DNA from: Candidatus Nealsonbacteria bacterium | GTDB taxonomy: Bacteria; Patescibacteriota; Minisyncoccia; Minisyncoccales; RBG-13-42-11 | Assembly: GCA_019923655.1 (NCBI GenBank) | Contig: JAHXGL010000002.1 | Coordinates: 2,933 to 66,932, forward strand | Direction of reading: 5' to 3' | DNA length: 64,000 nucleotides | In this document: positions 1,581 through 56,430 of the stretch, piece by piece | Layout: each line of letters opens with the position of its first letter | Position numbering within the stretch: position 1 is the stretch's first letter | The notes under the pieces: generated by a model | Told to the model about the DNA's origin: nothing | The model's input: the letters and a program-made list of their open reading frames with translations, nothing else | Database searches by the model: none | Program-made: the position numbers and the translations under genes

Positions 1581-2811
1581 AACTGCCGGCTATTTTTCTT
1601 AATCTTTTTATTACTTTTGGTAAAACTTTTAAAAGGTAATCAATCTCTTTTTCAGTTGTCCACCTTCCCAAAGTAAGCCGCAAAGAACCATGAGCTTGTT
1701 CCGGTTTTATGCCAATTGCCAAAAGAACATGACTCGGCTCTAATTTTATTGAAGAACAGGCAGAGCCGGTTGAAGCGGCCACTCCCAGCAAATCAAGTTG
1801 AATAACTATTGACTCCCCCTCAACAAACTCAAACCAAAAATTAGCGTTATTTGGCAATCTTTTTTTTGGATGGCCGTTAAGCCGGCTGCCAATTATTTTT
1901 CCAAGAACTCCTTTTATCAGCTTATCTCTTAATTTTGCCTGCTTTATGTTCTCTTTCTCCATTTCTCTTTTACAAATCTTCACTGCTTTGGCAAAACCAA
2001 CAATAGCCGGAATGTTTACAGTAGAAGACCTTAATCCAAATTCCTGGCCGCCGCCGTGTAAAATCGGCTCAATTCTTGTCCCCTCTCTGATAAACAAACA
2101 AGCAACTCCTTTTGGCCCATACATTTTATGGGCAGAAGCTGACAATAAATCAATGTTCATTTTCTGGACATCAATAGGAATTTTTCCAAAACTTTGAACA
2201 GCGTCAGTATGAACGCAAACTCTTTTTTCTTTGCAAATCCTGCCAATTTCCGCAATCGGCTGAATAGTCCCGATTTCGTTTGAAGCGTGAATTATTGAAA
2301 CTAAAATAGTATTTTTCCTTATCGCTTTTTTAACATCTTTTGGATTAACCAAGCCATATCTATCAACCGACAACCGGGTTATTCTAAATCCTTGCCCTTC
2401 CAGCCACTTAGCCGACTCTATAATACAAGGATGTTCAATTTGAGAAATAATGATATGATTGCCTATTTTTTTATTGCCCAGAGCAATTCCTTTCAAAGCT
2501 AAATTATTGCTTTCTGTAGCGGAGCTGGTAAAAATTATTTCATTCGGCTTAGCTCCTATTAAATCAGCTATTACTCCCCTGCTTTCTTCTAAGGCTTGCT
2601 TAGCTTCCTGGCCAAAGCTATGGAGAGACATTGTGTTGCCGAATTTCTCTTCAAAATAAGGCAGTATCGCTTTATTTACTTGTGGATCAACAGGGGTAGT
2701 AGCAGCATAATCCAGGTAAATTCTTTTTTTGGCTCTATTCATTTTCATGCCTAATATTTGCTTTGCTTTTTCATAATTACCTCCATTTCTTGATCTACAA
2801 ATTTTCGCCAT
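1573..2811 (-). CDS. iscS: cysteine desulfurase (class V aminotransferase, IscS/NifS)
   Basis: PLP-lysine region SASAHKMYGPKG and C-terminal active-site cysteine loop (STGSACSS). Confidence 0.85.
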   Translation of the reverse strand: MAKICRSRNGGNYEKAKQILGMKMNRAKKRIYLDYAATTPVDPQVNKAILPYFEEKFGNTMSLHSFGQEAKQALEESRGVIADLIGAKPNEIIFTSSATESNNLALKGIALGNKKIGNHIIISQIEHPCIIESAKWLEGQGFRITRLSVDRYGLVNPKDVKKAIRKNTILVSIIHASNEIGTIQPIAEIGRICKEKRVCVHTDAVQSFGKIPIDVQKMNIDLLSASAHKMYGPKGVACLFIREGTRIEPILHGGGQEFGLRSSTVNIPAIVGFAKAVKICKREMEKENIKQAKLRDKLIKGVLGKIIGSRLNGHPKKRLPNNANFWFEFVEGESIVIQLDLLGVAASTGSACSSIKLEPSHVLLAIGIKPEQAHGSLRLTLGRWTTEKEIDYLLKVLPKVIKRLRKIAGSYE

Positions 2812-3530
2812 TTATCTTCTCCAAGAAATAAAGGATAGGGATATTCTTTATATGAATATTTTAATAATTCAAGGGCTAATCGCCGTTTTTCTAAAATTTC
2901 CACGCTAAATATTAAATTTTTATATGAGTCAACTAAATTAATTTTGGGAGCATATTGACGCATCCACTCAATTGATTTTCCAATTCTCTCGCTTTTGTAT
3001 TTAAGTATAACTGGCCACTTTTTAACTATATTCCCAATTTCTTCTTCGACTAAATAGTTTTTTAGGTTTTCCAAACGGTCATTAATTAGTTTAGAACTAT
3101 AGCTTATAATTCTTGGTTCGCTTATAACTAAACATTTGAACTCCTCTTCGGAAAAATTATACTTGTCTTTTAAGTTTTTTTCTAATCTCTCAAGATAATT
3201 ATTAAATGTCTCTGGTCTATACTTCAAAGTCTTTGGGTATTTTTCAACTATCTTTTTAATCTCTTTATTGGAAAAACGAGCTTTTAAGTTTTCCAAGCGG
3301 TCGCTTATTTTTTTTAGATCTTTTGGCGTCTTTCTTTCTTCAATATTTTTTTCAATAAATCCATTTTTAAGTCCATATTTTTTAACTATGGTTTTTATTG
3401 TTTCTATTTCGTTCAATTTTAATTCTAATGGACTTATCCTTGATTCTTTTCCATGTTTTGATTCTATTATTGGTTCTGATATTTCGAAGTCTTTATTTTC
3501 AAATGGATTTTCAGGTGACTTAAATGACAT
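2751..3530 (-). CDS. hypothetical protein with internal ~35-aa helical repeats
   Basis: ORF with repeated motif (e.g. IVEKYPKTLKY / IVKKWPVILKY, DRLENLK x2); no confident family assignment. Confidence 0.4.
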   Translation of the reverse strand: MSFKSPENPFENKDFEISEPIIESKHGKESRISPLELKLNEIETIKTIVKKYGLKNGFIEKNIEERKTPKDLKKISDRLENLKARFSNKEIKKIVEKYPKTLKYRPETFNNYLERLEKNLKDKYNFSEEEFKCLVISEPRIISYSSKLINDRLENLKNYLVEEEIGNIVKKWPVILKYKSERIGKSIEWMRQYAPKINLVDSYKNLIFSVEILEKRRLALELLKYSYKEYPYPLFLGEDKWRKFVDQEMEVIMKKQSKY

Positions 3531-6436: not shown

Positions 6437-7467
6437 TAGACAGAATTAATGTGTCTTCCTTCAAGAAAACTTGAAATATTAGCAATCGTTGTATCTAAAA
6501 TCCTTTTCAGAGCTTCCTCGGAATAAAAAGCAATATGAGGAGTAATAATAACCTTTGGATGTTCGCGCAAAAAATGATTTTGAAGAATTGTTTTTAAGTT
6601 ATATTTTTGCTGAAATTGCTTAGTTAAAAGTTCTTTTTCTTCTTTAAGAAAAGCTTCTTCTTCCAAAACATCTAATCCAACCCCTGCCAAGATTTCTTTT
6701 TTTAGCGCTAAAACTAAAGCCTCGGTCTTTATTAACCCTCCTCTGGCAGTATTAATTAATAGCGCTCCTTTTTTAATTTTTCTAATATTATTTTCATTAA
6801 TTAAATGATGAGTTTTAGGATTGAGTACCGTATGAAGACTGATAATATCGGAATGGCCAAGAAGATAATCCAAGTTAACATATTTCAGTTTTAATTTTAA
6901 TTTTCTAATCGTCTTAAAATCTTTTCTGATGTCATAAACTAAAACTTTCATTCCAAAGCCATTGGCGATTCTAACTACCCGAGAACCAATTCGGCCCATT
7001 CCAATAATGCCGATTGTTTTTCCTTCCAAGTCAAATCCTTTTAGATTTTCAAGAGTAAAATCCGCTCTTCTTATTTTTTCTATTGCCAGGGGCAGATTTC
7101 TAGCCAAAGCCAAGATTAAAGCAAAAGTATGCTCGGCAACAGTATTATCCCCGTATGTTGGCACATTAGAAACCCTTATTTTTTGTTTGACGCAAGCCTC
7201 CAAATCAATATGGTCAAATCCAGTAGACATTGTGGTTATAAACTCAAGCTTTGGCAGTCTCTTTAGAATTTCCTTGTCAATTTTAGAATAGATAAAACCA
7301 GCCAGGATTTTTGTCCCCTGGATTTGACTTGCTGTTTTCAAAGTAATGGGTTTTGCAAAAAACTTCAAATCAATTTTTTTAGATAATTTCTGGCAAATTT
7401 CTTCTATCTTTGCTTGAAGGTATTTTTTTTCCAGAGATTTTATTTCAAAAAAAGCGATTTTAATCAT
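6433..7467 (-). CDS. D-isomer-specific 2-hydroxyacid dehydrogenase (D-lactate/phosphoglycerate dehydrogenase-like)
   Basis: NAD-binding GIIGMGRIGSRV, catalytic His/Arg/Glu pattern of the D-2-hydroxyacid dehydrogenase family. Confidence 0.75.
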   Translation of the reverse strand: MIKIAFFEIKSLEKKYLQAKIEEICQKLSKKIDLKFFAKPITLKTASQIQGTKILAGFIYSKIDKEILKRLPKLEFITTMSTGFDHIDLEACVKQKIRVSNVPTYGDNTVAEHTFALILALARNLPLAIEKIRRADFTLENLKGFDLEGKTIGIIGMGRIGSRVVRIANGFGMKVLVYDIRKDFKTIRKLKLKLKYVNLDYLLGHSDIISLHTVLNPKTHHLINENNIRKIKKGALLINTARGGLIKTEALVLALKKEILAGVGLDVLEEEAFLKEEKELLTKQFQQKYNLKTILQNHFLREHPKVIITPHIAFYSEEALKRILDTTIANISSFLEGRHINSVY

Positions 7468-8279
7468 AAAAAATATTTTATTAACCAGCCTCCGTCAACT
7501 ACCAAAGTATGGCCGGTAATATGGTTTGCTTCATCAGATACCAGATAAAGACAGGCAAAAGCAGTGTCCTTTGGCAAGCCGAATTTAGCCAAAGGAATTT
7601 CAGCTAACATTTTTTGCTTTTTTCCTTTATTGGCTTCTAAACGAGATTCAAGCATTTTGGTTTCGGTTTTTCCCGGAGCAATGGCATTAACATTAATTCT
7701 ATAAGGCGCTAAATCCAAAGCCATCTGCCTGGTAAAATCTATCAAGGCTCCTTTGGTGGCAGAATAGACCGCGCTCAAAGGAGATTCGCTCGCAAAACCG
7801 GCCGTAGAAGCAATATTAATAATCCGACCTTGTTTTCTTTTTTTCAAATGAGGAAGAATTGCCCGGCATCCGTAAACAGCGCCGTAAAAATTTACCTTTA
7901 TTATTTTGTCAATTTCTTCCAAAGTCATCTTGGTTAGGTCTTTTTGGATGTAAATACCGGCATTGTTAACCAAAATATCTAATCTCCCCTGCTCTTTTAT
8001 TGTTTCCTGAACCCTTTTTTCAAATTCCTGATAATTGGTAACATCTAATTTTTTAGCATTTGCTTTTCCTTTGGCTTTTTTTATTTCTGCGGCTACTTTT
8101 TCACACTCCCCCTTATCAATATCAGTAACTACTACTCTTGCGCCAGCCCTAGCCAAAACAAGAGCAATTTCTCTGCCAATTCCTTGTTGGCTGCCAGTAA
8201 TTAAAGCAATTTTATTTTTTAATTCAAACATTAAAACTTCTAAATCTTTTTTCGCCGTAAAAAGGCTGGTGTTTCCCAA
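7464..8279 (-). CDS. short-chain dehydrogenase/reductase (FabG-like)
   Basis: TGSQQGIGREIA Rossmann motif, NNAG, YSATKGA catalytic motif. Confidence 0.75.
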   Translation of the reverse strand: MGNTSLFTAKKDLEVLMFELKNKIALITGSQQGIGREIALVLARAGARVVVTDIDKGECEKVAAEIKKAKGKANAKKLDVTNYQEFEKRVQETIKEQGRLDILVNNAGIYIQKDLTKMTLEEIDKIIKVNFYGAVYGCRAILPHLKKRKQGRIINIASTAGFASESPLSAVYSATKGALIDFTRQMALDLAPYRINVNAIAPGKTETKMLESRLEANKGKKQKMLAEIPLAKFGLPKDTAFACLYLVSDEANHITGHTLVVDGGWLIKYFL

Positions 8280-8503
8280 AATTTTTCTTTTTCCAGCATT
8301 TCTCCTTCAATGTCTTGGGCTTCTTTTTTAATCTGAAGCCCGCTCTTTCTTAGTTTTTCTTTTCTGTTTTTAGTCTTAACTTTAGTCTTCCAAACCGAGC
8401 GCTCAACACTTTGAGTGCTTGGTTTGGAAACTTTAAGCGACTCGTTTGGTTTAATTTCAATTTTCGTTTCCAAATTCACATTCGTTTCCAAATCCGTTTC
8501 CAA
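8240..8503 (-). other. out-of-frame continuation of ftsZ carrying the conserved FtsZ C-terminal peptide (ETPAFLRRKK)
   Basis: 87-aa ORF overlapping the ftsZ 3' end in a different frame; ends with the FtsA/ZipA-binding consensus (D/E)-x-P-x-F-L-R-R/K. Confidence 0.45.
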
Positions 8504-8790
8504 ACCACGAAGGGGTTTGGAAACGCGGAGTCTTCCAAATCCATCGCGGATTTAGAAACTTTAGTCTTCCGAATCCCTTTGGGAGTGTTCCAAATCCCTT
8601 TGGGATTTGGAAACGAATTCGGAAACGCAGTCTTCTTTTTTTGCTTTATTGTTCCAAATCTGACAAGATTTGGAAAATTTATTTTTTCTCTTTTTCTCTT
8701 TTTCTTTTTTTGGTGCCCATCTTCCCTGTTTTCCAAGTCTTGAAGGGATTTTGAAACGGACTTGGAAACGGACTTGGAAATGGACTTTTC
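8385..8790. repeat. dense block of palindromic hairpin repeats (stem TTCCAAAYC / GRTTTGGAA), at least 8 tandem or nested copies
   Basis: direct sequence inspection; same unit recurs at 9745, 13906, 18851, 30004, 31210, 34801, 51397, 56403, 58645. Confidence 0.85.
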
Positions 8791-9804
8791 TAAACAACCA
8801 ATTGCTAATAAAAATACCTTGATACCCTTAGAAGGTTTCCGTTTCTGGGAAATTCCGAAAATAATTTTAGCTTCCGGATTAACTAATTCAGAAATGGCTT
8901 TTGATATCTGATTAACATCGGCAAGATAAAGATTTTTTTCTCCGGCAATATTAAACAAAACTCCTTTTGCTCCCTTAATTTTGTAGGAGTATAAAGGAGA
9001 ACTTAAAAGCCTTGCTATTAAATCTTTATCCGTTTGCGTTTTTGAACTTTCAACAGTATTCAAATAAACAAGCCTTCCCTGTCCTTCAAAAATCGTCTGA
9101 ATATCGGCAAAATCAATGTTAATTAAACCCGGATTATAGATAATTTCAATTAATCCCTTCAAATTTTCCGCTAAATTTTTATTAATAAAAGAGAAAGATT
9201 GTTTCAAAGACGTTTCTTTGTCAATGACCTGAAAAACTCTCTCGTTCGGAATAATAGTCATCGCGTTTAGATGTTTTTTTGCGTTAGATAAGGCATCTCG
9301 GCTAATTTCCATTTTTTTCTCCCCTTCAAACTTAAAGGGCAGGGTGAAAATGCCATAAGTAAGATTGCCTAAATTTTTAGAAATTTTGGCAAAAACCGGA
9401 GCGGCGCCGGAACCGACCCCGCCGCCCAAACAAGCGACAATAATACAAATATCCTGGCCAAGGCAAAGTTTTTTTATTCTCTCTTTTTCATTTTGAGCCG
9501 CCTCTCTTCCCTTTTCAGGATTCATACCTGTTCCTAGTCCGTTGGTAATGGCCTGTCCAAATTGAAAACAGCTTACCTTTTTAGAAATTGTTTTCAGAGC
9601 TTGAGCATCAGTATTAGCCGCCACAAAACAACTTTGTTTGATTTCAGAAGCAATTTCTGAAACAATCATTCCCGCTCCTCCGCCAATACCAATGACTTTA
9701 ATTTTAATTTTTTTAACCTTATCAATAGAACTTCCTTTTCCAGAGTCTTCCAAATTCGTTTCCGAATTCGTTTTCAAATTCGTTATGATTCTTTTTTTAC
9801 TCAT
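8476..9804 (-). CDS. ftsZ: cell division GTPase FtsZ (core domain; C-terminal tail replaced by repeat-derived sequence, apparently frameshifted)
   Basis: tubulin/FtsZ signatures NGLGTGMNPEKG and GGGVGSGAAPVFAKISK; N- and C-terminal extensions encoded by the palindromic repeat family. Confidence 0.85.
   Translation of the reverse strand: MSKKRIITNLKTNSETNLEDSGKGSSIDKVKKIKIKVIGIGGGAGMIVSEIASEIKQSCFVAANTDAQALKTISKKVSCFQFGQAITNGLGTGMNPEKGREAAQNEKERIKKLCLGQDICIIVACLGGGVGSGAAPVFAKISKNLGNLTYGIFTLPFKFEGEKKMEISRDALSNAKKHLNAMTIIPNERVFQVIDKETSLKQSFSFINKNLAENLKGLIEIIYNPGLINIDFADIQTIFEGQGRLVYLNTVESSKTQTDKDLIARLLSSPLYSYKIKGAKGVLFNIAGEKNLYLADVNQISKAISELVNPEAKIIFGISQKRKPSKGIKVFLLAIGCLEKSISKSVSKSVSKSLQDLENREDGHQKKKKRKREKINFPNLVRFGTIKQKKKTAFPNSFPNPKGIWNTPKGIRKTKVSKSAMDLEDSAFPNPFVVWKRIWKRM
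9745..9784. repeat. degenerate tandem half-sites of the hairpin repeat (TTCCAAATTCG x3) encoding the N-terminal extension of FtsZ
   Basis: sequence gtcttccaaattcgtttccgaattcgttttcaaattcgtt. Confidence 0.6.
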
Positions 9805-13658: not shown

Positions 13659-13961
13659 GGAGTGTGAGATTCGAACCCACATTAGTTGAGCGGGAACAAT
13701 TTGAGTCATATTCAAGGCACGAGGAGTGAAGTGTGCCTTTAGGCACATAAGCGACGAGTAACGAAGAAGATGGCTCAAATTGACCCGCCCCAAGGGGAAG
13801 CTCAAAAATGGATGATTTCTTTGTTGCTCCTCCTCAAGGTGCTTGTCAGCACGATTTCGTTGTCGCGCCTTGAAATCATCTCATTTTTGAGCTTCTCAAT
13901 CTAAAGTTTCCAAATCCCTTTGGGATTTGGAAGACTGATGTGGGTTCGGATCTCACACTCC
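13659..13961. mobile_element. 303-bp element bounded by 24-bp terminal inverted repeats (GGAGTGTGAGATYCGAACCCACAT) that mimic a tRNA T-arm/acceptor; contains one hairpin-repeat copy
   Basis: left TIR 13659-13682 and right TIR 13938-13961 differ at one base (T/C, 23/24 identical when reverse-complemented); element lies exactly between the rpsI stop and the Cas4-like start. Confidence 0.45.
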
Positions 13962-17424: not shown

Positions 17425-17462
17425 AAATTTTCCAAATCTTGTCAGATTTGGAACAATAATCT

Positions 17463-17859: not shown

Positions 17860-19278
17860 TTAGTCAAGTTCAAACCTTAATTTAATTTCAATTTTGTCTA
17901 AATCTTCAGGCGCTCTATCCACCCAGAATGGCCAAAACTTTGGACTGGCTCTAATAATATCTGGCTTTGCTTCCAAAAAATCTTTAGTTTCATACAACGA
18001 CTTTCCCTTAACCGTATTTTCTAAAATCAGAATATTAATGTAGGGATAAATTTTTGCGGCAGCTTCCAAGGCAAGACTCATTTTACCCTGGTCCAAATCA
18101 AAGTCTGTTAAAGAATAATCTATTCTTAAACTCGGCTGATGAATTTGTTTGGTTTCAGGAATTTGGGTCTTAATAAATTCTATGGCAAAATCTTTTAAGT
18201 TTTGTTCTTTGAAAATTAAAGTTTTTGACTCAACTTTAACCTGAAAATTAAAATTTTCCATTTCCATTCCCGGCTTAGCCAAAGAAAAGGTTTCAATAAT
18301 TTCGGTCTGAATTGCCTGGTCAAAGAAAACAAACCCCATTTGCTCTTTGGTTTTTATTTTATTTTCAAAAAAAGCTCGGCTTTCTTTTTTCGCTCTTTCG
18401 CTCAAAATGTTTTTTGCTTTCTCTAAATCTTGTTCCGTCACCTGAATCATTTCTCTGGAAAAACCGCCTGTCATTGATTCAAAAGATTCAGCGTAAAAAT
18501 TAACAAAAAGCGGGGTTCCGACTAATCCCGGAATAGAGAAAGTAGAAGTCCCAATATTATGCCCCTCTCCCGGGACATCGGCAACTACCCTAACATCAAT
18601 ATGTCCGGGTATTATTTTTCCTCTTTCACGACTTTTGCCCGGAATAGTTATTCTGGTCGGCGTTCGGAACACTTTCCCTTCAGCTGATATAAAACGAGTT
18701 CTAGGGATAAAAGATTGAGAAGAAAATGAGTGTTTGTTAAAAACCCTTATTGTTCCTTCAGCTTTTCCCTGTTTTAGAACCTTGGCAGAAGCAGGAAAGA
18801 CATCAGCAACCGTTCTTTTTTCTCTAAAAATTTGGCCGGGAATAACCTTAGTCTTCCAAACCACGAAGGGGTTTGGAAACGAAGTCTTCCAAACCACGAA
18901 GGGATTTGGAAACGAAGTCTTCCAAACCTCTTCAGGTTTGGAAACTTTATTTTCAAAATCAAGTCCTTCTATGCCAATATCAATTTTTAATTCTGTGTTA
19001 AAAGTCTGAATTTCTGTTTTTGGCCAAACTTCTATTACTGCCTTAGGCAGAGTAAAAAAAGCAAGGGCTCCAAGCAAAACTAAAACTGATAATCCTAAAA
19101 TTAGCCATTTTTTATTAAACCCCTGCCTTGGTTTAGCTGTTTTTTTTTCTAAATCTTCTAAGATATTGGCTTCTTTGAAGGGTTTCAAACCCTTTTTGCG
19201 ATCTCGGACACCGGGTTCTAAAATTTGTTCGCGATTTGACGCACAAGGGGGAAAAATGTCAATTACTTTTTTAGTCAT
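17860..19278 (-). CDS. hypothetical membrane-anchored protein (single N-terminal TM) containing three in-frame hairpin-repeat units
   Basis: TM segment WLILGLSVLVLLGALAFF; WKTSFPNPFVV repeated (33-bp period = 11 codons); no family recognised. Confidence 0.5.
   Translation of the reverse strand: MTKKVIDIFPPCASNREQILEPGVRDRKKGLKPFKEANILEDLEKKTAKPRQGFNKKWLILGLSVLVLLGALAFFTLPKAVIEVWPKTEIQTFNTELKIDIGIEGLDFENKVSKPEEVWKTSFPNPFVVWKTSFPNPFVVWKTKVIPGQIFREKRTVADVFPASAKVLKQGKAEGTIRVFNKHSFSSQSFIPRTRFISAEGKVFRTPTRITIPGKSRERGKIIPGHIDVRVVADVPGEGHNIGTSTFSIPGLVGTPLFVNFYAESFESMTGGFSREMIQVTEQDLEKAKNILSERAKKESRAFFENKIKTKEQMGFVFFDQAIQTEIIETFSLAKPGMEMENFNFQVKVESKTLIFKEQNLKDFAIEFIKTQIPETKQIHQPSLRIDYSLTDFDLDQGKMSLALEAAAKIYPYINILILENTVKGKSLYETKDFLEAKPDIIRASPKFWPFWVDRAPEDLDKIEIKLRFELD
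18851..18945. repeat. three tandem hairpin-repeat units (33-bp period) inside a coding sequence
   Basis: gtcttccaaaccacgaaggggtttggaaacgaa x2 plus a variant copy. Confidence 0.85.
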
Positions 19279-21092
19279 ATTAAAATTGCTTTTATTCTTC
19301 TTATGCCTGCGCTAGAAGACTGTTCTTTAATAATTTTGAAACAACCCAATTCAGAAGTCCTTTTTACATGAGGTCCGGCGCAAATCTCTTTTGATACCCA
19401 ATCTTTATTTTTTTTATCTCTTATAGTATAAACAAATACTCTTTCCGGATACTTTTCTCTAAAAAAAGCTAAAGCGCCTGATTTTATCGCCTCTCCGCAT
19501 TCCATCTCTTGTTTTTCAACCTCTAAATCCTGTTTAATTCTTTGATTAACTATCTGCTCAACCTTTTTGATTTCATCTTGTGTCAGTTTAACAGAATGAG
19601 AAAAATCAAATCTTAATCTCTCTGAATTAATATCACACCCCATTTGCCTTACATTATCTTTAAGCGCTTCTCGCAAGGCATAATAAAGCAAATGCGTGGC
19701 AGTATGCAATTTAATAACCGCTATTTTTTGTTCCTCGTCTTTTATTTGTTCTGCTCCGGTCCCGCCAAATTTTTTGGTTGCTCCTATCCGGGAGATTTCC
19801 TGATGTTTTATAAAAGCTTGTTCAAAACTTTTTTTATCAACTTTTAATTTTTTTTCTACTGCCATTTCTTCTGTCATCTCCAAAGGAAAGCCATAAGTAT
19901 TATAAAGATGAAAAGCCATTGAGCCGTCAATCTCTCCCTTGCAGGCAAGCTTTTCAAATTCTTTTAATCCTTGTTCTAATGTCTTTTCAAATTTGGTTTC
20001 TTCTTTTTGGATTATAGACAAAATATCGGCTTGTTTTGTTTTGTGTTCCGGATAAAATTCCTGATAAATTTTAATGGTTTCTTGAGACAAAGGAATTAAA
20101 AAATTTCTTGGCAGGTTTATTAATTTTCCAATTCTCATTGCCCTCCTTAAAATTCTTCGCAAAATATAGCCCTGGTTTGTATTGGAAGGAAAAATTCCTT
20201 CAGCGGCTAGGAAAACCGCTCCTCTGATATGGTCAGAGATAATCCGAAAATTTGGTTTTTGGCTGTTGTAATTTTTAGCGCTTAAGACTTCAATTTTTTG
20301 AATAACAGGCAAAAATAAATCTGTCTCATAAGCCGATGGTTTGTTTTCTAAAACTGCTAATAACCTTTCAAAGCCAATACCTGTATCAACATTGCTCTGC
20401 GGCAACTTACTAAAACAACCATCTTTTTTTTTATTATACTCCATAAAGACCAAATTCCAAAGCTCAACAAACCGCTTGCATCTTTCGCAGTTTGGCCCGC
20501 AGTCCTGATTTCCGCACCCATATTGAGGACCCCGGTCGTAATGGATTTCAGAACAAGGGCCGCAAGGTCCTGTATCAGCTGTTGGGCCCCAAAAATTATC
20601 TTTTATTCCAAATTCAATAATTCTTTCTTGAGAAATCCCCTGTTCCTGCCAAATTTCCAAAGATTCTTTGTCTTTAGGAATGCCTGCTTCTCCTTTGAAA
20701 ATCGTGAACCAAAACTTATTTTTTTCCAAACCAAGGATGTTGCCCAAAAAATCAAGGGCTATTTCTATGGCGCCTTGCTTAAAATAACCCTTATCTTGGT
20801 CAAGACCAATTGACCAATTTCCAAGCATTTCAAAAAAAGTATGATGAGTATCATCTCCCACTTCTTCAATATCAAGAGTTCTAAAACATTTCTGAATTGA
20901 CGTTAAATGTCTGGTCCCAAAATCTTCTAAAACATTTTTGGTATTGGAAAGATAGGGAGTAAATTGCTGCATTCCGGCTGTTGTTAGCAAAACGCTCGTA
21001 TCAAGGGGCAAAAGCGAACTTGACGGAACAACTTTGTGCCCCTTTTTCTCAAAAAAATCTAAGAATTCCCGACGAAGTACTCTGGAAATCAT
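19275..21092 (-). CDS. alaS: alanine--tRNA ligase (catalytic, tRNA-binding and editing domains; lacks C-Ala domain)
   Basis: N-terminus FLDFFEKKGHKVVPSSSLLP, WNLVFMEYN, editing-site HTATHLL and CAGPHV motifs; 605 aa, shorter than canonical AlaRS. Confidence 0.85.
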   Translation of the reverse strand: MISRVLRREFLDFFEKKGHKVVPSSSLLPLDTSVLLTTAGMQQFTPYLSNTKNVLEDFGTRHLTSIQKCFRTLDIEEVGDDTHHTFFEMLGNWSIGLDQDKGYFKQGAIEIALDFLGNILGLEKNKFWFTIFKGEAGIPKDKESLEIWQEQGISQERIIEFGIKDNFWGPTADTGPCGPCSEIHYDRGPQYGCGNQDCGPNCERCKRFVELWNLVFMEYNKKKDGCFSKLPQSNVDTGIGFERLLAVLENKPSAYETDLFLPVIQKIEVLSAKNYNSQKPNFRIISDHIRGAVFLAAEGIFPSNTNQGYILRRILRRAMRIGKLINLPRNFLIPLSQETIKIYQEFYPEHKTKQADILSIIQKEETKFEKTLEQGLKEFEKLACKGEIDGSMAFHLYNTYGFPLEMTEEMAVEKKLKVDKKSFEQAFIKHQEISRIGATKKFGGTGAEQIKDEEQKIAVIKLHTATHLLYYALREALKDNVRQMGCDINSERLRFDFSHSVKLTQDEIKKVEQIVNQRIKQDLEVEKQEMECGEAIKSGALAFFREKYPERVFVYTIRDKKNKDWVSKEICAGPHVKRTSELGCFKIIKEQSSSAGIRRIKAILI

Positions 21093-30003: not shown

Positions 30004-30036
30004 AGTCTTCCAAATCCATTCGGATTTGGAAACGTA
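30004..30036. repeat. hairpin-repeat copy in the rplP-rpmC intergenic spacer
   Basis: gtcttccaaatccattcggatttggaaacg. Confidence 0.8.
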
Positions 30037-31103: not shown

Positions 31104-31667
31104 TTAAAATGCTTTTCTTCTAAAAACTTTTTTGGTTCCTCTTTTGGTTTTTTTAATCCTCGGATCAAAGAATATTCTCTTTGCTCTTAATCCAGGCTTC
31201 TTTTCCTCAGTCTTCAAAATCCCTTCGGGGGATTTTGAAACTTTAAATGAGCTTTGTTTTTTCTCTGCTTCTTTTGCTTTTTTAATTTTTATTGCTTTCC
31301 TTGTTTTTCTTGGTTTTTCTCCTTGTATCGTATCAAGAACCAAACTTATATGGGAGGTCTTTTTCTGAATTTCAGCAGCCCTGCCTCTTGCTCGAGCCCG
31401 CCATCTTTTATGTTTTGGCCCTTCGTCAGTTAAAATTTTAGAAATATAAAGACCTGCTTCTTCTATCTGAAAATTATTTTTAGCGTTAGCTAAAGCGGAT
31501 TTCAAAAGCTTAATAAAAGGTTCAGCCGCTCTCTTAGAAATAAAAGTTAAAATAGTTTGAGCTTGACGGGCTGTTTTCCCTTTAATTAAATCTGCAACCA
31601 TTCTTACTTTTCTGGGAGCAATTCTCAAATATCGTAGTTTTGCTGTAATAGGCATAATAGGATTCAA
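31104..31667 (-). CDS. rplV: 50S ribosomal protein L22 with ~75-aa C-terminal basic extension containing an in-frame hairpin-repeat variant
   Basis: L22 core (AKLRYLRIAPRKVRMVADLIKGK); tail includes the FKVSKSPEGILKTE segment encoded by the palindrome at 31210-31241. Confidence 0.9.
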   Translation of the reverse strand: MNPIMPITAKLRYLRIAPRKVRMVADLIKGKTARQAQTILTFISKRAAEPFIKLLKSALANAKNNFQIEEAGLYISKILTDEGPKHKRWRARARGRAAEIQKKTSHISLVLDTIQGEKPRKTRKAIKIKKAKEAEKKQSSFKVSKSPEGILKTEEKKPGLRAKRIFFDPRIKKTKRGTKKVFRRKAF

Positions 31668-34695: not shown

Positions 34696-35376
34696 TTAAC
34701 TTTTCGTGGTTTTCTTATTTTGCTCATTTGCTTGTTTTTCCTGCCCTTGTATTTTGGTTTTCATTTTTTCTTGTTTTTCGTCTCCAAGCTCCTTTACTTC
34801 GTTTCCAAACCCCTTCGTGGTTTGGAAGACTTCCAAAGGAATTGCTGAAGCAACACTCTCTTCTGGATCTTTAAGAATTTTAACATCGTTAGGAATAACT
34901 AAATCTTTAATCAAAATACTATCTTCAAAAGTTTTTATTTTTTCTATATCTACTTTAATTTCATAAGGAAGATTTTGAGGCAGAGCTTTGACTTCTACTT
35001 CATAGATATTCTTAACCAAGGTTCCGCCTAAATTTTTACAAACTAACGCCTCACCCTCAAAAACCAAAGGAACAACAGCAGTAATCTCTTTATCAAGTTT
35101 TGGCTGGTAAAAATCAATATGAATTATTGCTCCGGTAATAGGGTCTTTTTTTGTTTCATAAATTAGAACCAAAAACTTTTGGTCCTGTACTTCAAGAGAA
35201 ATTAAAGAAGACTCTCCGGCTTGTTTATAAACATTTTCAAATTCTTTTAAGTTTACTTCCAAAGCTTGATTTTTGATTTTTGGTCCATACAAAACCGCTG
35301 GCAAAATTTCTTTTTCCCTTAAAATCTGTGTTTTCTTGCCCATATCTTTTCGTGTTTTAGCTGATAAACTAATCAT
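34696..35376 (-). CDS. rplY: 50S ribosomal protein L25 / general stress protein Ctc, with in-frame hairpin-repeat insertion in the C-terminal tail
   Basis: N-terminal L25 motif ILPAVLYG; C-terminal EVFQTTKGFGNEV encoded by the palindrome at 34801-34830. Confidence 0.8.
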   Translation of the reverse strand: MISLSAKTRKDMGKKTQILREKEILPAVLYGPKIKNQALEVNLKEFENVYKQAGESSLISLEVQDQKFLVLIYETKKDPITGAIIHIDFYQPKLDKEITAVVPLVFEGEALVCKNLGGTLVKNIYEVEVKALPQNLPYEIKVDIEKIKTFEDSILIKDLVIPNDVKILKDPEESVASAIPLEVFQTTKGFGNEVKELGDEKQEKMKTKIQGQEKQANEQNKKTTKS

Positions 35377-46050: not shown

Positions 46051-46167
46051 CTGTAGGGGGGCTATCTACTTTCGCGCAAAATAGCACTATCATCAACCTC
46101 GGGAGATTTCACTTCTGTGTTCGGTATGGAAACAGGTGGAGCACTCCCAGTATAACCCCCTTACAGT
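46051..46167 (-). rRNA. rrf: 5S ribosomal RNA
   Basis: reverse complement contains CCACCTGTTTCCATACCGAACACAGAAGTGAAA (loop C/helix III consensus), and the terminal helix CTGTAAGGGGG/CCCCCCTACAG closes it. Confidence 0.8.
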
Positions 46168-46352
46168 ATCTATAATCTTTATGATTTTTGTTTTGACGCG
46201 GGATATAAAGCTTTTAACGATTATTAATTGCTAGCCAAAAAATTGCTGATGATTTATTAGTACTGCTCGGCTTAACCCATTACTGAGCTTACACCTACAG
46301 CCTATCAAGGTCGTCATCTTCGACCAATCTAAGAGTCCTAATCTTGGAGCCT

Positions 46353-46383
<31 letters not shown>

Positions 46384-46572
46384 AGTTCCCGACTTAGCTA
46401 CCCAGCAATGCTCCTGGCGGAACAGCTGGTACACCAGAGGTCGATTCAGCCTGATCCTCTCGTACAAAGGCCAACCCTCCTCAAGACTCAAACGCCTGCG
46501 GTAGATAGAGACCAACCTGTCTCACGACGGTTTGAACCCAGCTCACGTACCACTTTAATTGGCGAACAGCCA

Positions 46573-46615
<43 letters not shown>

Positions 46616-46622
46616 CACTAAA

Positions 46623-47518
46623 TTTCTATTATTACTAATAGCGTAGACTATACCTTTATCTAGAACATCCATTCTAGACACCAACGTTTTATAGTACTTA
46701 ACGCACTATCTTCATCCCGCGTAATGCGGAAATCTAGTCGTTACGGGGTCGCGAAAACCTATTTTATACATCATCGAAGGGATGATGTATGGACGTATGA
46801 CATTGGTTAATTTTTTCGTTTCTTCTTGGTTACAATACATCCTGTATCCTTTATCGCGATCGCGATAATATCGGATCTGAATGTTGAAAATGTTCTCGAA
46901 ACATTTTTGCAGAAAAATTATTTCTGGCAAAGAAAAAGAATAAGTGCTTATGTCAATTTTGCCTTTGGAATATGAACCGTCGTCCATAATCCAGACGGCT
47001 AAAGCGAAAGGGGTTAATTCTTTTCCGATTTCAAATGGAATAATCTTCCTTCCATTTTTATAACCTTCTCTCTTGTAGAATTTTTTGTAGATTTCAGTAA
47101 ACAACGGGTGTCTTATCGTTCTGAACCACCATGATTTTTCATATTTATTGCCTTTTTCATCATATCTGTAACTCATTTTAGGCTCAGTAAATACAAACGG
47201 TTTTAGTATTTGATATTTCCAATCAACATACTTTTTTTGAACTAACCCGTGATCTACTTTGAAATTGACATTTTGAGCTCCTTTGCCCAAACGCATCGTT
47301 CCATCGCCAAGAAGAGATCCAATGATTAATGATCTCTGTTTCGAATTTAACCTCAGAGATTTTTTAATCAGAATCCACTTTTTGTGCCAATGTTTATTTT
47401 CGCAACTTCCCACGGTGTTGACCATATATTTAGCTAATTATAGCAAATTTACTGGGTCTTTATAAATATATGGCTTTCTCCGTTATGAGTTGGTTTATCC
47501 TCGACATTCGGCTACTTT
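46623..47518 (-). mobile_element. group I intron (inferred) in 23S domain V, between CACCTCGAT and GTCGGCTC (E. coli ~2500 region), carrying a LAGLIDADG ORF
   Basis: exon sequence is contiguous with E. coli 23S when 46623-47518 is removed. Confidence 0.65.
46712..47425 (-). CDS. LAGLIDADG homing endonuclease (double-motif)
   Basis: motifs LIIGSLLGDGTM and LAVWIMDDGS. Confidence 0.85.
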   Translation of the reverse strand: MVNTVGSCENKHWHKKWILIKKSLRLNSKQRSLIIGSLLGDGTMRLGKGAQNVNFKVDHGLVQKKYVDWKYQILKPFVFTEPKMSYRYDEKGNKYEKSWWFRTIRHPLFTEIYKKFYKREGYKNGRKIIPFEIGKELTPFALAVWIMDDGSYSKGKIDISTYSFSLPEIIFLQKCFENIFNIQIRYYRDRDKGYRMYCNQEETKKLTNVIRPYIIPSMMYKIGFRDPVTTRFPHYAG

Positions 47519-47749
47519 ATCGAGGTGCCGAACAGGGCCGTTAATGTGAACTTGCAGGCCCTACCAGCCTGTTATCCCCGGGGTAGCTTTTATCTGATGA
47601 TCCTCCCCATTTCTATAAATAAGGGTCGGTTCACTAAGTTCTGGTTTCCCATCTGCGCGGCATATCCGCCTTGCAGTTAAGCCGGCTTATCCCTTTACAG
47701 GACCGCTCCGATTTCCATCCGGAGCTAGCCGACCTTATAAACGCCTCCA

Positions 47750-48406
47750 CTACTCTTTAGGCAATTCTGTTAACCTTAAAACTCTTGGAATTTTATATTT
47801 CATCGAAGAAATTATGTGTGGTTTTATCAATGCGATAAACTTTTCTCCAGATTTTCCTCCTAAATAAATTTGTTTTCCATTTTTCTCTTTTCTTGTTGTA
47901 CTGCTAATTCCGAATTTAACCTTCAATACCTCTTGAAGTCTTTTCACATCATCCTCTCTAAATCCTTGGGTGTTTAAAAATAAACCCTTGTGTTTTCTCG
48001 ATTTAATTGATCCGTCATCCATATACCAAATCGCTAATCCTAAAGGAGTAATATCCTTTTCTAAGTCATTCGGTATAATTTTCTTTCTTTTTCTGTAAAA
48101 TTTTTCTTGGAATTCTCCTAACAATCTATGACCATAAGTAATGAATCCATAATTCAGGTAAGTTTTATTCCAAACTTTCTTTCTCTTTGATTTTGGTTTA
48201 CTCCTTATCCAATTCCGAAATTCCTCATAAATCCAGTCAACATATTCTTTCTGTTTGTAGCTGTGTTCTACTTTTAATCTTCCTAGTATCGGTGTATACA
48301 ATCTTTCTAAATGACCATCTCCTAAAATCAAACCAATTAAGATTTCTTTTTGTCTTTGACTTAGAGAGAGTTTACTTTTATATTCTTCGATTTCTTTACT
48401 TCGCAT
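47750..48406 (-). CDS. LAGLIDADG homing endonuclease (double-motif)
   Basis: motifs LIGLILGDGHL and LAIWYMDDGS. Confidence 0.85.
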   Translation of the reverse strand: MRSKEIEEYKSKLSLSQRQKEILIGLILGDGHLERLYTPILGRLKVEHSYKQKEYVDWIYEEFRNWIRSKPKSKRKKVWNKTYLNYGFITYGHRLLGEFQEKFYRKRKKIIPNDLEKDITPLGLAIWYMDDGSIKSRKHKGLFLNTQGFREDDVKRLQEVLKVKFGISSTTRKEKNGKQIYLGGKSGEKFIALIKPHIISSMKYKIPRVLRLTELPKE

Positions 48407-48690
48407 AATTTCAGAGTTTAAGTTTCGGATTAGTTAGCGGGCACTAAAACTAACCTTGCCGAATCTTTAGGTCGCCCTAAAGTTCAGACTGTATCACTAC
48501 CCCTTGAAATAATTCTATATCTCAAAGGGACTCGACATACAGTCGTTGAGGGCATCCGCCTTTGGCGGGTTTCCCTGCTGATTGTCCGCACCAAAGAATT
48601 ATTACTTAATTTTATCAAAATTAAGTATCTTTGGATACTCGGATGTTCCAGCATATTAGTCGAGTTTGCTCTAAAGATTACTCTTTAGAG
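47751..48690 (-). mobile_element. second group I intron (inferred) in 23S, upstream of the CCTAAAGAGTA block, carrying a LAGLIDADG ORF
   Basis: exon blocks ...GTAGTTTAAGTGGGGC and GCCTAAAGAGTAGTGGAGG are separated by ~940 bp; boundaries approximate. Confidence 0.55.
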
Positions 48691-51396
48691 GCCCCATAAA
48701 TTAAGGCAAGTGCCCCACTTAAACTACCTACCAGACACTGTTTTTCGCCAATTAAGGCAAAGTTAGAACAAAGACCTTGAAAGACGGGTGTTTCATTGGC
48801 GTCCTGCTCTCAAAGAACAGAACTCCCCGCTACACTACACATTCAAAGCCAAAATTCAATATCTGGCTATAGTAAAGCTCCCGGGGTCTTTTCGTCTAGC
48901 CGCAGGTAACCGGCATCTTTACCGGTATTGCATTTTCACCGAGCTCCTCGTTGAGACAGTTCCCAAGTCGTTAAGCCTTTCATGCGGGCCGGAACTTACC
49001 CGGCAAGGGATTACGCTACTTTAAGACGGTTATAGTTACCGCCGACGTTCACTGGCGCTTCATTCAGTCAGCGCCAAACACATAAACTATGCGCTTGACA
49101 CCGCCAAATTTAACGTTCCAGCACTGGTCAGGCCTCAGCCCCTATACATCCTCTTACGAGTTAAGCAGGGACCTGTGTTTTTGATAAACAGTCGCCTGGG
49201 ATACTTTTGTTGCAGCCCAGCCTTGTGCAAAGCACAAGGTCAGGCAGTCCTTATTGCGAACTTACGGACACTTTTTTGCCGAGTTCCTTAACGAGGTTTC
49301 ACTCGTTCACCTTGGCACATTTACGCCTACCCACCTGTGTCGGTTTACGGTACGGACTAAACGCATAACTAACTCCTAAGAAGTTTTTCTGGGAAGCTTG
49401 CTCATTTGAGTTCATCCCACCGTAGCAGGACTTCCTGTTAGCCCTTGAAAAATCTCAAGCTAACAACAGAAATCCAATAATCTGCTCAAATTACTAAACT
49501 CCGTCACTCCTTAGAATTATGCGCTCAGGGGCCGGAATATTAACCGGCTGTCCATCATCCAGGCCATTCGGCCAAAGACTAAGGACCGCCTAACCCTTGG
49601 TTGATTGTCATTGCCAAGGAAACCTTAGGTTTTCGGTGTCCCGGGCTCTCACCGGGATTGCGGTTACTCATGCCAACATTCTCACTCCTTAGCGCTCCAC
49701 CAAACCTCACGGTTTGACTTCGCAGCACTAAAGACGCTCCCCTACCACCCATGAAATAAAAATATCTCACGGGTCCTTATCTTCGGTACTAAGCTTAGTC
49801 CCGGTAATCTTCGGCGCGAAATTCCTTAATTAGTAAGCTATTACGCACTTTTTAAAGGATAGCTGCTTCTAAGCTAACCTCCTAACTATCTTTGGAAATT
49901 CACTTCCTTAAAAACACTTAGCTCTTCGCAACCCTTTTAATAAAAGAGTTGGAACCTGCCTTTCAGCAGTAGTTTAGGGACCTTAGATAAAGATCTGGGC
50001 TGTTTCCCTTTTGACTATGGAGCTTAGCCCCCACAGTCTAACTCCCCGCCAAAATTTTTTCGCCATTCGGAGTTTGATTGGAAAGACTAGGCAAAGCCCA
50101 CGTAATTCCATTCAGTGCTCTACCTGCGAAAATTTAGGCGAAGGCTAGCCCTAAAGCTATTTCGGGGAGAACCAGCTATTACCAAGCTCGATTAGCTTTT
50201 CACTTCTTACCACAGCTCATCCCAGAGTATTGCACGGCTCACGGGTTCGGGCCTCCTCTCGACTTTCGTCGAGATTCACCCTGGCCATGGCAAGCTCGCT
50301 TGGCTTCGGGTTCTCTATTTCCAGTCTTCCTGATAAATCAGGGGTCGCGCTATTAACACTTGCTTTCGCTTTGCCTTCGCCCCAGAAGGGCTTAGACAAA
50401 CTGAAAATAAAGACTCGTTGGCTCGTTCTGCAAAAAGCACGTCATCACCCCGCCGAAGCGGAGCTCTGACTCTTTGTAGGCGTGATGGTTTCAGGTTCTA
50501 TTTCACCGCCCTTCCGGGCTACTTTTCACCTTTCCCTCACGGTACTGGTTCACTATCGGTGAGATTAAGTATTTAGCCTTGGCTGATAGTTCAGCCTGCT
50601 TCCTTCAAGGTTTTCATTCCTTGAAGTACTCAAGTATAACAGTTAGGAGCATGAAATCGTTTTCGCTTACAGGACTATTACCTTCTTTGGTCAGGCTTTC
50701 CATCCTTGTTTAGCTAACGAAATTTCATTTTGATAGACTCCTTTTGAAGCAAAAGCTCCAAAACACCATTAACTTACAACCCCCAGCCACACCTCGCTAC
50801 GCTCGGTATTCACTTAAACGTAAAGCGTAAAACGTAAAATGCAAAACAACAGTTCAAAATTCAAAACAAAATGTTTTAAGTTTTAGGTTGTTATTTTACG
50901 CTTTTCGCTTTTAGTTTTTCATTTAAGTTCGTACCAAGCGCAAAGAGGTATGGCTAGGTTTGGGCTATTCCCTTTTCGCTCGCCGCTACTAAGGGAATAT
51001 CCTTGTGCGGAGCACAAGGCTTGTTTTCTTTTCCTCCGCTTACTGAGATGTTTCACTTCAGCGGGTTCGCCGCCGCGCAGAGCGCGGCTTGCCGTGGTTT
51101 ACACGGCAGGGTTTCCCCATTCGGAAATCCCCGGATCAAAGGTTGGTAGCCACCTCCCCGAGGCTTATCGCAAGCACCCTACGTCCTTCATCGCCTTAAT
51201 CTCCCAAGGCATCCTCCATCCGCCCTTAAAATGCAATTTGGCATACCAATTTTGTAAAACAAAATTGATAAGTTTGGCTAGCAATTAATAATCGCTATGT
51301 TTACCCTGTTAAATAATTTGCTTCGCAAATTAAAAATCAAAGATTTTTATTTAATAGGGTGAATCCTGTTAAATAATTTTGCCTTCGGCAAAATTG

Positions 51397-51520
51397 CTCG
51401 GTTTGGAATACTTCGTTTCCAAACCAAGCATTCAAAGTGTTGAGTGCTCGGTTTGGAATACTTCGTTTCCAAACCAAGCATTCAAAGTGTTGAGTGCTCG
51501 GTTTGGAATACTGCGGAACA
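51397..51520. repeat. about 2.3 tandem copies of a 57-bp unit in the 23S leader, each containing a long-loop variant of the hairpin repeat
   Basis: gctcggtttggaatacttcgtttccaaaccaagcattcaaagtgttgagt repeated. Confidence 0.8.
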
Positions 51521-56402: not shown

Positions 56403-56430
56403 GTTTCCAAATCCGTAGGATTTGGAAGAC
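56403..56430. repeat. hairpin-repeat copy in the rpsL-rpsG spacer
   Basis: gtttccaaatccgtaggatttggaagac. Confidence 0.8.

Follow-up and report, generated by a model that had tools for sequence, protein, structure and literature searches.

A two-base excess at a hairpin-repeat junction splits ftsZ in a Candidatus Nealsonbacteria assembly

In the window, the 64,000-nt stretch of Candidatus Nealsonbacteria DNA that was analysed, the gene for the cell division protein FtsZ is present in two overlapping pieces, which raises the question of whether the break belongs to the assembly, to the DNA of the strain or to the way in which the gene is read. An ORF check of the window recovered the two overlapping frames exactly as an earlier note on this DNA had described them. 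The ftsZ core ORF occupies 8476..9804 on the minus strand (442 aa), and it is overlapped by a second minus-strand ORF at 8240..8503 (87 aa) whose frame is -1 with respect to that of the core (its codons begin at position mod 3 = 1, those of the core at 0). The NCBI annotation presents the locus as two items, a 425-aa 'FtsZ family protein' (MBZ1348232.1) and a 79-aa 'hypothetical protein' (KYQ20_00445). The features of the locus are as follows.

8476..9804, minus strand: ftsZ frame A as assembled, with N-terminal tail, GTPase core, FtsZ_C and repeat-encoded linker.
9739..9790, minus strand: N-terminal tail, made of 12-nt half-units of the hairpin repeat (GAATTTGGAAAC-like), with the in-frame translation TNLKTNSETNLED.
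8797..9705, minus strand: folded FtsZ core, Pfam Tubulin (aa 34-194) and FtsZ_C (aa 263-336).
8364..8790, minus strand: disordered C-terminal linker, with 6-8 short hairpin repeats, unalignable with the sister species.
8240..8524, minus strand: ftsZ frame B, which is native on the 3' side of the lesion, with the remaining linker and the conserved C-terminal region.
8243..8353, minus strand: conserved C-terminal 37 codons (LRKSGLQIKKEAQDIEGEMLEKEKFWETPAFLRRKKI), with profile and BLASTP matches to relatives.
8281-8246, minus strand: FtsA/ZipA-type peptide FWETPAFLRRKK, within the conserved C-terminal 37 codons.
7464..8231, minus strand: downstream SDR gene, with a probable ATG at 8231.

The 442-aa ORF contains both the Tubulin/FtsZ GTPase domain (PF00091, aa 34-194, E = 1.3e-31, 110.8 bits, cut-off 33) and the FtsZ_C domain (PF12327, aa 263-336, E = 1e-12, 48.6 bits, cut-off 27), and the G-box GGGVGSG is present in its translation. 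The equivalog cut-off of NCBIfam TIGR00065 was not reached (277.8 versus 295.2 bits) by the window ORF or by the intact 506-aa protein of a conspecific contig, L065, alike. The shortfall reflects CPR divergence, not the frameshift, and accounts for the NCBI name 'FtsZ family protein'. The last ~100 residues of the ORF are encoded by short palindromic repeats, and frame A adds 16 aberrant residues (AFPNPFVVWKRIWKRM) before TGA closes it at 8478-8476. It is the -1 frame that carries the C-terminal block conserved in the clade (...RKSGLQIKKEAQDIEGEMLEKEKFWETPAFLRRKKI), which runs to 8240, where frame B ends at a TAG stop (8242-8240). In the sister species L001, the SDR gene starts 13 nt after ftsZ; since the same neighbour follows in the window, the true 3' end of ftsZ is at 8240.

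The protein has the domain order of the canonical FtsZ of E. coli and B. subtilis, with Pfam Tubulin and FtsZ_C both present, and its terminal motif FWETPAFLRRK resembles DIPxFLR(K/R). As in canonical FtsZ, the linker lacks conservation and varies in length, from about 150 to 440 nt among relatives. Unlike canonical FtsZ, however, the clade has an additional conserved charged block of ~25 aa (RKNGLQIKKEAEE.EKEMLEKEK) before the peptide, the linker and N-terminal tail are built here from genome-wide hairpin repeats, and the peptide is out of frame in the window's assembly.

The identity of the displaced C-terminus was evaluated with an HMM built from the last 60 aa of 117 relatives, which was run over every one of the 1785 stop-to-stop segments that the window contains. 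It matched only segment 8551-8243, in the frame of the 87-aa ORF (79.6 bits, E = 1.2e-23), so that the resemblance to the FtsZ C-terminal peptide noticed earlier is significant in a profile search. The next-best match (+51589-51669, E = 0.018) was judged to be due to chance. By BLASTP, the C-terminus of the 87-aa ORF is identical at 33/40 positions to the FtsZ of the closest other species, P0002 (E = 2e-20). Frame B is under purifying selection; over the 37 codons it differs from L001 at 8 codons synonymously and 5 non-synonymously, and all four differences among the 20 codons that precede the terminal residue (LEKEKFWETPAFLRRKK) are synonymous.

The earlier note had proposed a comparison with sister genomes. 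When this was carried out, the peptide was found in frame with the core in 26 of the 27 loci of more distant relatives that have a readable FtsZ C-terminus, the sole exception having an N gap, and 117/119 related proteins end with the in-frame peptide. The closest entry in the GTDB genome scan was the sister species (77%), the scan including neither a conspecific nor the window's own genome. A conspecific allele is nevertheless available in L065 (metagenome contig BBPE01000310.1), which is ~99.6% identical to the window over 5.6 kb, with 20 SNPs. Its ftsZ is one continuous 506-aa ORF with the same core, repeat-encoded linker and C-terminus, and the NCBI 90% cluster groups the window FtsZ with the L065 protein. 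The peptide is thus joined in frame to the core via the linker in L065 and not in the window, and the two-frame arrangement is conserved neither within the species nor among its relatives.

The window differs in length from L065 by -31, -9 and +84 nt, all three within the linker. Only the 31-nt difference, one 33-nt hairpin unit minus 2 nt, breaks the frame. The 84-nt compound element of the window is 30 nt shorter in a further strain (L067), and in the BBPF strain (L066) the N-terminal tail is longer by 54 nt of hairpin sequence, in frame. Four of the five strain-level indels (9, 84, 30 and 54 nt) therefore keep the frame, the 31-nt indel being the one that does not. Close to the lesion the window linker departs from L065 at several further points, namely the 9-nt indel and two substitutions, and is therefore an allele in its own right and not the L065 sequence plus one error.

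The lesion could be confined to a short interval. Frame B has TAA stops at 8563-8561 and 8554-8552, and together with the frame A stop at 8478-8476 these dictate that a single -1 shift must fall within 8551-8479. This interval contains a junction between hairpin units that departs from the others. Among seven junctions of the form GGAA[GT]AC-NN-CGTTTCCAA, the spacer is 2 nt in six, and 4 nt only at 8529-8526. The excess consists of a tandem CG (8527-8524). Deleting CG at 8525-8524 restores an ftsZ ORF of 520 aa, the product of which is identical to the L065 protein at 488/492 aligned positions. The lesion is thus a local 2-nt insertion. The elements concerned are the following.

8517..8536, minus strand: lesion site, junction GGAAGAC-TCCG-CGTTTCCAA with a 4-nt spacer (GGAAGAC-TCCG-CGTTTCC at 8536-8517).
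8495..8525, minus strand: hairpin unit directly 3' of the lesion, with a 12-bp perfect stem and a 7-nt loop.
8364..8447, minus strand: 84-nt compound hairpin element, 28 codons in frame, present in the window and absent from L065.

At the position of the hairpin unit 8495..8525, L065 has two tandem 33-nt copies. The junction sequence is GGAAGACTCCGCGTTTCC with the 2-nt insertion and GGAAGACTCCGTTTCC without it. The predicted junction peptides are ...AMDLEDSVSKPLR / ...SAFPNPLR... for an in-frame or shifted product and ...SAFPNPFVVWK for the truncated tail.

Other single events were considered and rejected. A homopolymer error is not tenable, because the A-runs at 8714-8640 lie upstream of both frame B stops, so that a slip there cannot join the frames, and the difference from the intact L065 allele is not in a homopolymer. 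Systematic indel errors of the long-read type are not consistent with the ~60 other window genes, which are full length with complete Pfam domain coverage. An alternative repair assumes that a G is missing in GGAA(G)AC at ~8499, in which case the hairpin would read FPNPFVVWKT as it does in ORF 17860..19278. This repair is less parsimonious than a 2-nt excess, both L065 copies being read in the VSKPLRGLE phase, and it is disfavoured also because the junction-spacer rule singles out 8529-8526. Accordingly, of the sequencing error first suggested for this locus, in a homopolymer or induced by repeats, the repeat-induced form fits best, given the intact ~99.6%-identical L065 allele and the 2-nt excess at a unit junction, and the homopolymer form does not.

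With the position and nature of the lesion and the existence of an intact conspecific allele demonstrated, its origin was considered. On balance, the frame break is most likely an assembly artefact in a strain-mixed repeat tract. The hairpin tract is one that defeats assemblers: the BBPF assembly breaks on either side of the linker, one contig ending at ~8786 and the next beginning at ~8443, and in the GTDB genome of the sister species the ftsZ linker is interrupted by a run of 100 N, the flanks of which are duplicated. The core SNPs of the window agree with BBPF at 8/8 sites and its N-tail arrangement agrees with BBPE. The window is thus a mosaic of the BBPE and BBPF haplotypes, and a mixed-strain consensus would look like such a mosaic. 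Furthermore, the split configuration was seen in one MAG only among 5.8 billion clustered proteins; when the frame B protein was used to search for independent assemblies with the split, the sole match was the 79-aa ORF of the same MAG. The C-terminal peptide is described as essential for FtsZ function in the model bacteria E. coli and B. subtilis (PMC9586301), and for this reason a dominant population without it is unlikely.

On this explanation, the ftsZ of this organism is normally a single uninterrupted gene of about 506-520 codons, running from an N-terminal tail through the GTPase core and a long disordered linker to the conserved peptide that binds a membrane tether. Palindromic repeats of ~29-33 nt, a family found genome-wide, have spread into both disordered parts, and their copy number varies between co-occurring strains, normally by multiples of three. 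Two extra bases (CG) at one junction, adjoining the variable-copy 33-nt unit, put the last ~95 codons, the conserved peptide included, into the -1 frame. These bases most likely arose in assembly or consensus building across the strain-heterogeneous tract, possibly by the end-to-end joining of two contig ends sharing CG, and they would then be absent from the functional gene of the living population.

The case resembles the splits that repeat tracts cause in MAGs in that an isolated frame break affects an essential gene at a strain-variable tract that other assemblies fail to cross. It differs in being a clean 2-nt tandem duplication instead of a homopolymer error or N gap, and a real mutation therefore has to be weighed. 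Several considerations count against an artefact. A de Bruijn-graph assembler seldom creates a 2-nt insertion of its own, because the reads must contain every k-mer. The full-length state of the ~60 other genes indicates that there is no general indel problem, and slippage from CG to CGCG is plausible as a real event. That the window linker is an allele distinct from L065 also weighs on this side.

A real strain-specific mutation is the next option after an artefact, less likely but a serious rival. The two bases would then have entered the DNA of the strain by recent slippage or by imprecise deletion of a repeat unit in the hairpin tract, leaving a truncated 442-aa FtsZ without the peptide, either as a fresh loss of function or as an allele, carried by a minority or only transiently present, that the MAG has captured. 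Hairpins and tandem repeats are known as hot spots of mutation, several real indels separate the strains in this tract, and the assembly is accurate elsewhere. The C-terminal frame is also undecayed, with 0 differences between the window and L065 in 8363-8240, as fits a very recent event. However, losing the tether-binding peptide should be severely deleterious, judging from what PMC9586301 describes for E. coli and B. subtilis, every other strain-level indel preserves the frame (4/4), and no second assembly has the split. The suggestion that repeat expansion had inactivated the linker can be accepted in part: the lesion does sit where repeat copy number changes, but repeats as such do not inactivate, since the repeat-laden linker is translated in frame in L065.

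The possibility was also considered that the insertion is fixed in the strain and that programmed -1 ribosomal frameshifting somewhere in 8551-8479 yields full-length FtsZ, with A_AAC_CCC (8518-8512) as a candidate site and with assistance from the hairpins. A search for slippery heptamers did find this one, the sole zero-frame X_XXY_YYZ heptamer in the only permissible interval, lying in the hairpin unit 8495..8525. The predicted product would have the junction ...DLEDSAFPN|PLRGLETDLETN.... Strong structure is predicted for the region (MFE -63.6 kcal/mol, z = -6.2), and the downstream frame is intact and conserved. The locus is like the programmed -1 frameshifting of dnaX and the IS3-family transposases in having overlapping frames for one protein and a formal heptamer in the overlap. 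Unlike those systems, the arrangement is not conserved, there is an in-frame conspecific allele, which reads the same hairpin in the other phase, and the frame break coincides with an indel relative to L065. Moreover, the heptamer falls within the 5' arm and loop of the hairpin that contains it (8525-8495), and no stimulatory hairpin or pseudoknot was found 5-9 nt downstream of it; the next stable hairpin (8431-8386) begins ~80 nt downstream. The structure signal is accounted for by the palindromic repeats themselves, and A_AAC_CCC is not known as an efficient bacterial slip site. If frameshifting did operate, an essential cytoskeletal gene would depend on recoding through intragenic hairpin repeats. 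With L065 and 26/27 relatives in need of no shift, the idea that frameshifting is required is not supported, and frameshifting of this kind is considered very improbable.

A functional two-piece arrangement, in which an FtsZ without the C-terminal peptide works beside a separately translated 79-87-aa protein carrying the tether-binding peptide, is more improbable still. The second ORF has possible TTG/GTG starts, and NCBI calls it as a separate gene. However, the gene is not divided in this way in any relative, the continuous allele of L065 speaks against the idea, and the FtsZ C-terminal peptide works by tethering the polymer to which it is attached.

The repeats themselves form a family that is dispersed well beyond ftsZ. 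The unit is a palindrome without a stop codon in any of the six frames; units are 29-33 nt in size, 33 nt being 11 codons, and compound forms are 42-84 nt. There are at least 15 copies in the 64-kb window, with tandem copies at 18854-18943 and 51417-51508, the latter related to the 84-nt element of ftsZ. One 30-nt copy, at 17430-17453, recurs identically in ftsZ at 8677-8650. Translated intragenic copies are found in the N-tail and linker of FtsZ (in frame in L065), in the tails of L22 (31213-31239) and L25/TL5 (34803-34827) and, numbering three, in ORF 17860..19278, while intergenic copies adjoin gene ends at 13906, 17430, 30008, 51417 and 56403. Hairpin-rich linkers are not a general feature of the clade. 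The density in the window's ftsZ linker is ~14 per kb, the L001 linker has 2 repeats and the linkers of 22/24 relatives have none, many being found in this species only. Length differences of 33(-2), 9, 84, 30 and 54 nt separate strains at ~0.35% SNP divergence, a presence/absence polymorphism that indicates recent mobility or turnover. Neither a RAYT nor an IS200-IS605 transposase was found among the ~60 genes of the 64-kb window scanned with Pfam. The window showed neither terminal inverted repeats nor target-site duplications, the latter not being definable for such short tandem units. A CRISPR array was rejected, because the units abut one another or form hairpins without unique spacers.

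Rickettsia palindromic elements (RPEs) are selfish palindromic repeats inserted in frame in protein-coding genes (PMC10969869). The units described here are like RPEs in being palindromes dispersed in both intergenic DNA and ORFs, translated as part of the host protein and located at insertion-tolerant sites, here the FtsZ tails, the C-terminal tails of L22 and L25 and ORF 17860..19278. By comparison with RPEs (~100-150 bp), however, they are much smaller, 29-33 nt or 42-84 nt when compound, often tandem and stop-free in six frames. They vary in presence and copy number between >99.5% identical strains, and they have no sequence similarity to RPEs and an unrelated host phylum. They are analogous to RPEs in behaviour, and are not members of the RPE families. 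REP/BIME elements and small MITEs are likewise 20-40-nt imperfect palindromes in tandem or inverted clusters, with many copies per genome and intergenic copies beside gene ends, but a large fraction of the copies here is intragenic and translated.

The 425-aa 'FtsZ family protein' and KYQ20_00445 are accordingly halves of one ftsZ, not a truncated FtsZ plus a novel small protein. The frame break belongs to a single assembly or strain and does not signal recoding, and the locus should not be cited as a recoding candidate. It illustrates why hairpin-repeat tracts break or corrupt metagenome assemblies. The colonisation of the disordered tails of FtsZ by hairpin repeats is a modestly interesting by-product of the analysis, biologically more interesting than the split itself. 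A six-frame stop-free palindrome of 11 codons has spread through a Nealsonbacteria genome and is translated in the disordered tails of FtsZ, L22 and L25, an RPE-like phenomenon in a CPR lineage. In FtsZ it alters the length of the linker and N-tail between >99.5% identical strains, almost always in frame, and so provides a natural experiment on how much variation in sequence and length the FtsZ linker tolerates.

The ftsZ gene was assembled as two overlapping reading frames, with the conserved C-terminal peptide out of frame with the core as the earlier note had described:

9804-8476, minus strand: ftsZ core ORF, 442 aa, FtsZ by its Pfam domains (frame A)
8503-8240, minus strand, -1 frame: ORF2, 87 aa, overlapping the core ORF and ending in ...RKSGLQIKKEAQDIEGEMLEKEKFWETPAFLRRKKI (frame B)

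The 442-aa ORF contains the Pfam domains Tubulin (aa 34-194, E = 1.3e-31) and FtsZ_C (aa 263-336, E = 1e-12). From ~8790 on it is occupied by a tract of short palindromic repeats based on TTCCAAA/TTTGGAA, and it terminates at a TGA (8478-8476). TAA stops interrupt frame B at 8563-8561 and 8554-8552, so the two frames can be joined only by a shift within 8551-8479.

When 5.8 billion clustered proteins were searched, relatives of FtsZ in Nealsonbacteria and other Patescibacteria numbered in the thousands, and the split form was found only in the window's own MAG. The terminus ...RKN[GA]LQI[KR]KEAEE.EKEMLEKEKFWETPAFLR[RK]K... was present in 117 of the 119 best non-self FtsZ matches. An HMM of the last 60 residues of 117 relatives, run against each of the window's 1785 stop-to-stop segments, matched only segment 8551-8243 in frame B (79.6 bits, E = 1.2e-23), so that the proposed peptide similarity is significant in a profile search. 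The runner-up (E = 0.018), KKEKSLLESDFSEHKQKFWNLTAFL at 51589-51669 on the plus strand, lies in a repeat-rich spacer beside the 23S gene and is probably a chance match. ORF2 also matched P0002, the FtsZ of the closest other species, by BLASTP (33/40 identities, E = 2e-20). The DNA locus of P0002, L001, is ~85% identical to the window in both the ftsZ core and the last 110 nt, and shares the gene order ftsZ-SDR-2-hydroxyacid-dehydrogenase. The 37 terminal codons differ from those of L001 at 8 synonymous and 5 non-synonymous codons, and within the 20 codons preceding the terminal residue (LEKEKFWETPAFLRRKK) all 4 differences are synonymous. This mostly synonymous pattern indicates that, over evolutionary time, frame B is the one that has been translated.

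Metagenome contigs were scanned with the linker and C-terminus as query, and three of them proved to belong to the same species. One of these, L065 (BBPE01000310.1, 17.3 kb), differs from window 11450-5700 by 20 SNPs and 3 indels, and its ftsZ is one ORF of 506 aa (1625..3145). The N-tail and core are the same as in the window. The repeat-encoded linker follows frame A as far as ...KSAMDLED and then continues as CVSKPLRGLEDSVSKPLRGLEDSQRDLETNVNLETKIEIKPKEKLRKSGLQIKKEAQDIEGEMLEKEKFWETPAFLRRKKI. All three indels are inside the linker:

8526: window 31 nt shorter than L065
8500: window 9 nt shorter, a multiple of three
8447-8364: window 84 nt longer, a multiple of three

The 31 nt correspond to one 33-nt hairpin unit (GTTTCCAAACCCCTTCGTGGTTTGGAAGACTCC) minus two; L065 has two tandem copies of this unit at the site and the window has one. 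In a second contig, L066 (BBPF01000416.1), the FtsZ N-tail carries 54 nt of additional in-frame hairpin material (MSKERIITNNQTNFVSKFRTKSSKSAMDLEDSPWDLEDAGKGS...; L066 1571-1700 vs. window 9804-9739), indicating that both disordered ends of FtsZ vary between co-occurring strains.

The excess was located by comparing unit junctions, defined as the unit 3' end GGAA[GT]AC, a spacer and the next unit 5' end CGTTTCCAA. The spacer is 2 nt in six of seven junctions (window 51405, 51455, 18923 and 18890; L065 2893 and 2926). In the seventh, window 8536-8517, it is 4 nt, TCCG, the excess being a tandem CG (8527-8524). Removal of 8525-8524 results in a 520-aa ORF, and its translation agrees with the L065 protein at 488 of 492 aligned positions. 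Insertion of one G at ~8499 would also restore the frame, but is less parsimonious in view of the reading phase of L065 and of the spacer rule. The locus is a single ftsZ gene whose hypervariable hairpin-repeat linker carries a local lesion of 2 nt. The earlier suggestion of a repeat-induced frameshift in the sequence was thus essentially right, the excess lying at a unit junction and the frame being continuous in L065.

An assembly artefact is somewhat the favoured origin of the lesion. One report describes the FtsZ C-terminal peptide as essential in model bacteria (PMC9586301), and the other strain-level ftsZ indels all preserve the frame: +54 nt (L066), 30 nt in a compound hairpin (L067, a further BBPF contig), 9 nt and 84 nt. 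Assemblies demonstrably struggle with the tract; in the BBPF assembly one contig ends at ~8786, exactly at the repeat start, and the next begins at ~8443, and a sister-species genome has an N gap there. Furthermore, the other two haplotypes are mixed in the window, which has BBPF alleles at 8/8 core SNPs and the BBPE N-tail arrangement, as a consensus from co-occurring strains would give. A CG doubled exactly at a unit boundary is expected from the end-to-end joining of contig ends that share two bases. Against an artefact, novel k-mers are rarely produced by graph assemblers, the window's other ~60 genes are intact, and slippage could plausibly have turned CG into CGCG. A real mutation is the less likely of the two origins, but a plausible one.

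Nothing supports programmed -1 ribosomal frameshifting at the overlap, which the earlier note had raised as a possible requirement for full-length FtsZ. The L065 allele needs no shift, as the same hairpin is read there in the other phase. GTDB species representatives provided 32 loci, of which 27 had a readable C-terminus and five were truncated by a contig boundary. Core and peptide share one frame in 26 of the 27, including four loci in which the peptide is visible in the ORF tail in a form divergent from the search motif. The single exception, L002 (CAYOVW010000027.1, the sister-species representative), has a 100-N scaffold gap in the linker (1686-1786) with duplicated flanking sequence, which puts its peptide artificially out of frame. 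The permissible interval does contain one formal X_XXY_YYZ heptamer, A_AAC_CCC (8518-8512), but it sits within the 5' arm and loop of the hairpin 8525-8495, with ~80 nt separating it from the next stable hairpin downstream. The region folds strongly (-63.6 kcal/mol, z = -6.2), a signal that is accounted for by the palindromic repeats.

Elsewhere in the window, the 23S rRNA gene (46250-51225) is interrupted, with Rfam matches at 46250-47830, 48708-48873 and 48931-51225; no 16S rRNA gene was found adjacent to it. Accompanying features are:

46712..47425 and 47750..48406: two LAGLIDADG homing-endonuclease ORFs within the 23S insertions
46053-46163: 5S rRNA, following the 23S

A peptide-chain release factor, RF1 or RF2 (54573-55670, 365 aa, PCRF plus RF-1 domains), is one uninterrupted ORF; if it is RF2, it would lack the +1 frameshift usual in prfB. 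AlaRS (19275-21092) is 605 aa with a tRNA_SAD domain at its end. The ORF after it (17860..19278, 472 aa) overlaps it by 4 nt and had no Pfam match; it may be a C-terminal part detached from AlaRS or an unrelated protein.

The hairpin repeats occur at at least 15 sites in the 64-kb window. The unit is 29-33 nt (consensus GTCTTCCAAAyC-loop-GrTTTGGAAACG) and its compound forms measure 42-84 nt; the 33-nt unit corresponds to 11 codons that are stop-free in all six frames. Copies outside ftsZ include:

13906-13935: intergenic
17430-17453: intergenic, 30 nt identical to ftsZ 8677-8650
30008-30031: intergenic
51417-51508: intergenic copies at 51417 and 51467
56403-56425: intergenic
18854-18943: three tandem copies, in frame, inside ORF 17860..19278
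31213-31239: translated in frame in the ribosomal protein L22 C-terminal tail, past the Pfam domain end at aa 111
34803-34827: translated in frame in the ribosomal protein L25/TL5 C-terminal tail, beyond aa 178

The ftsZ linker holds 6-7 hairpins in the window species and none in 22 of 24 relatives. The repeats behave similarly to the palindromic elements of Rickettsia, whose insertions into genes are in frame (PMC10969869), and are like REP elements in size, but are a member of neither family. No cognate transposase was found within the window. P0002 has a ~20-aa core insertion (RAQARQGRAQRQDGAEASLIKEG; L001 784-848, aa ~250-275) between the GTPase and C-terminal domains, a GC-rich repeat-like sequence absent from the window and other relatives. 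Additionally, the motif PKE(S/N)LR(L/F)PTGQA recurs in the FtsZ N-tails and linkers of P0016, P0025, P0036, P0056 and P0003, and these other Nealsonbacteria-like lineages may have intragenic repeat elements of their own. As a recoding candidate the ftsZ locus is of low interest; a repeat family in the disordered tails of essential proteins is a modest but genuine curiosity.
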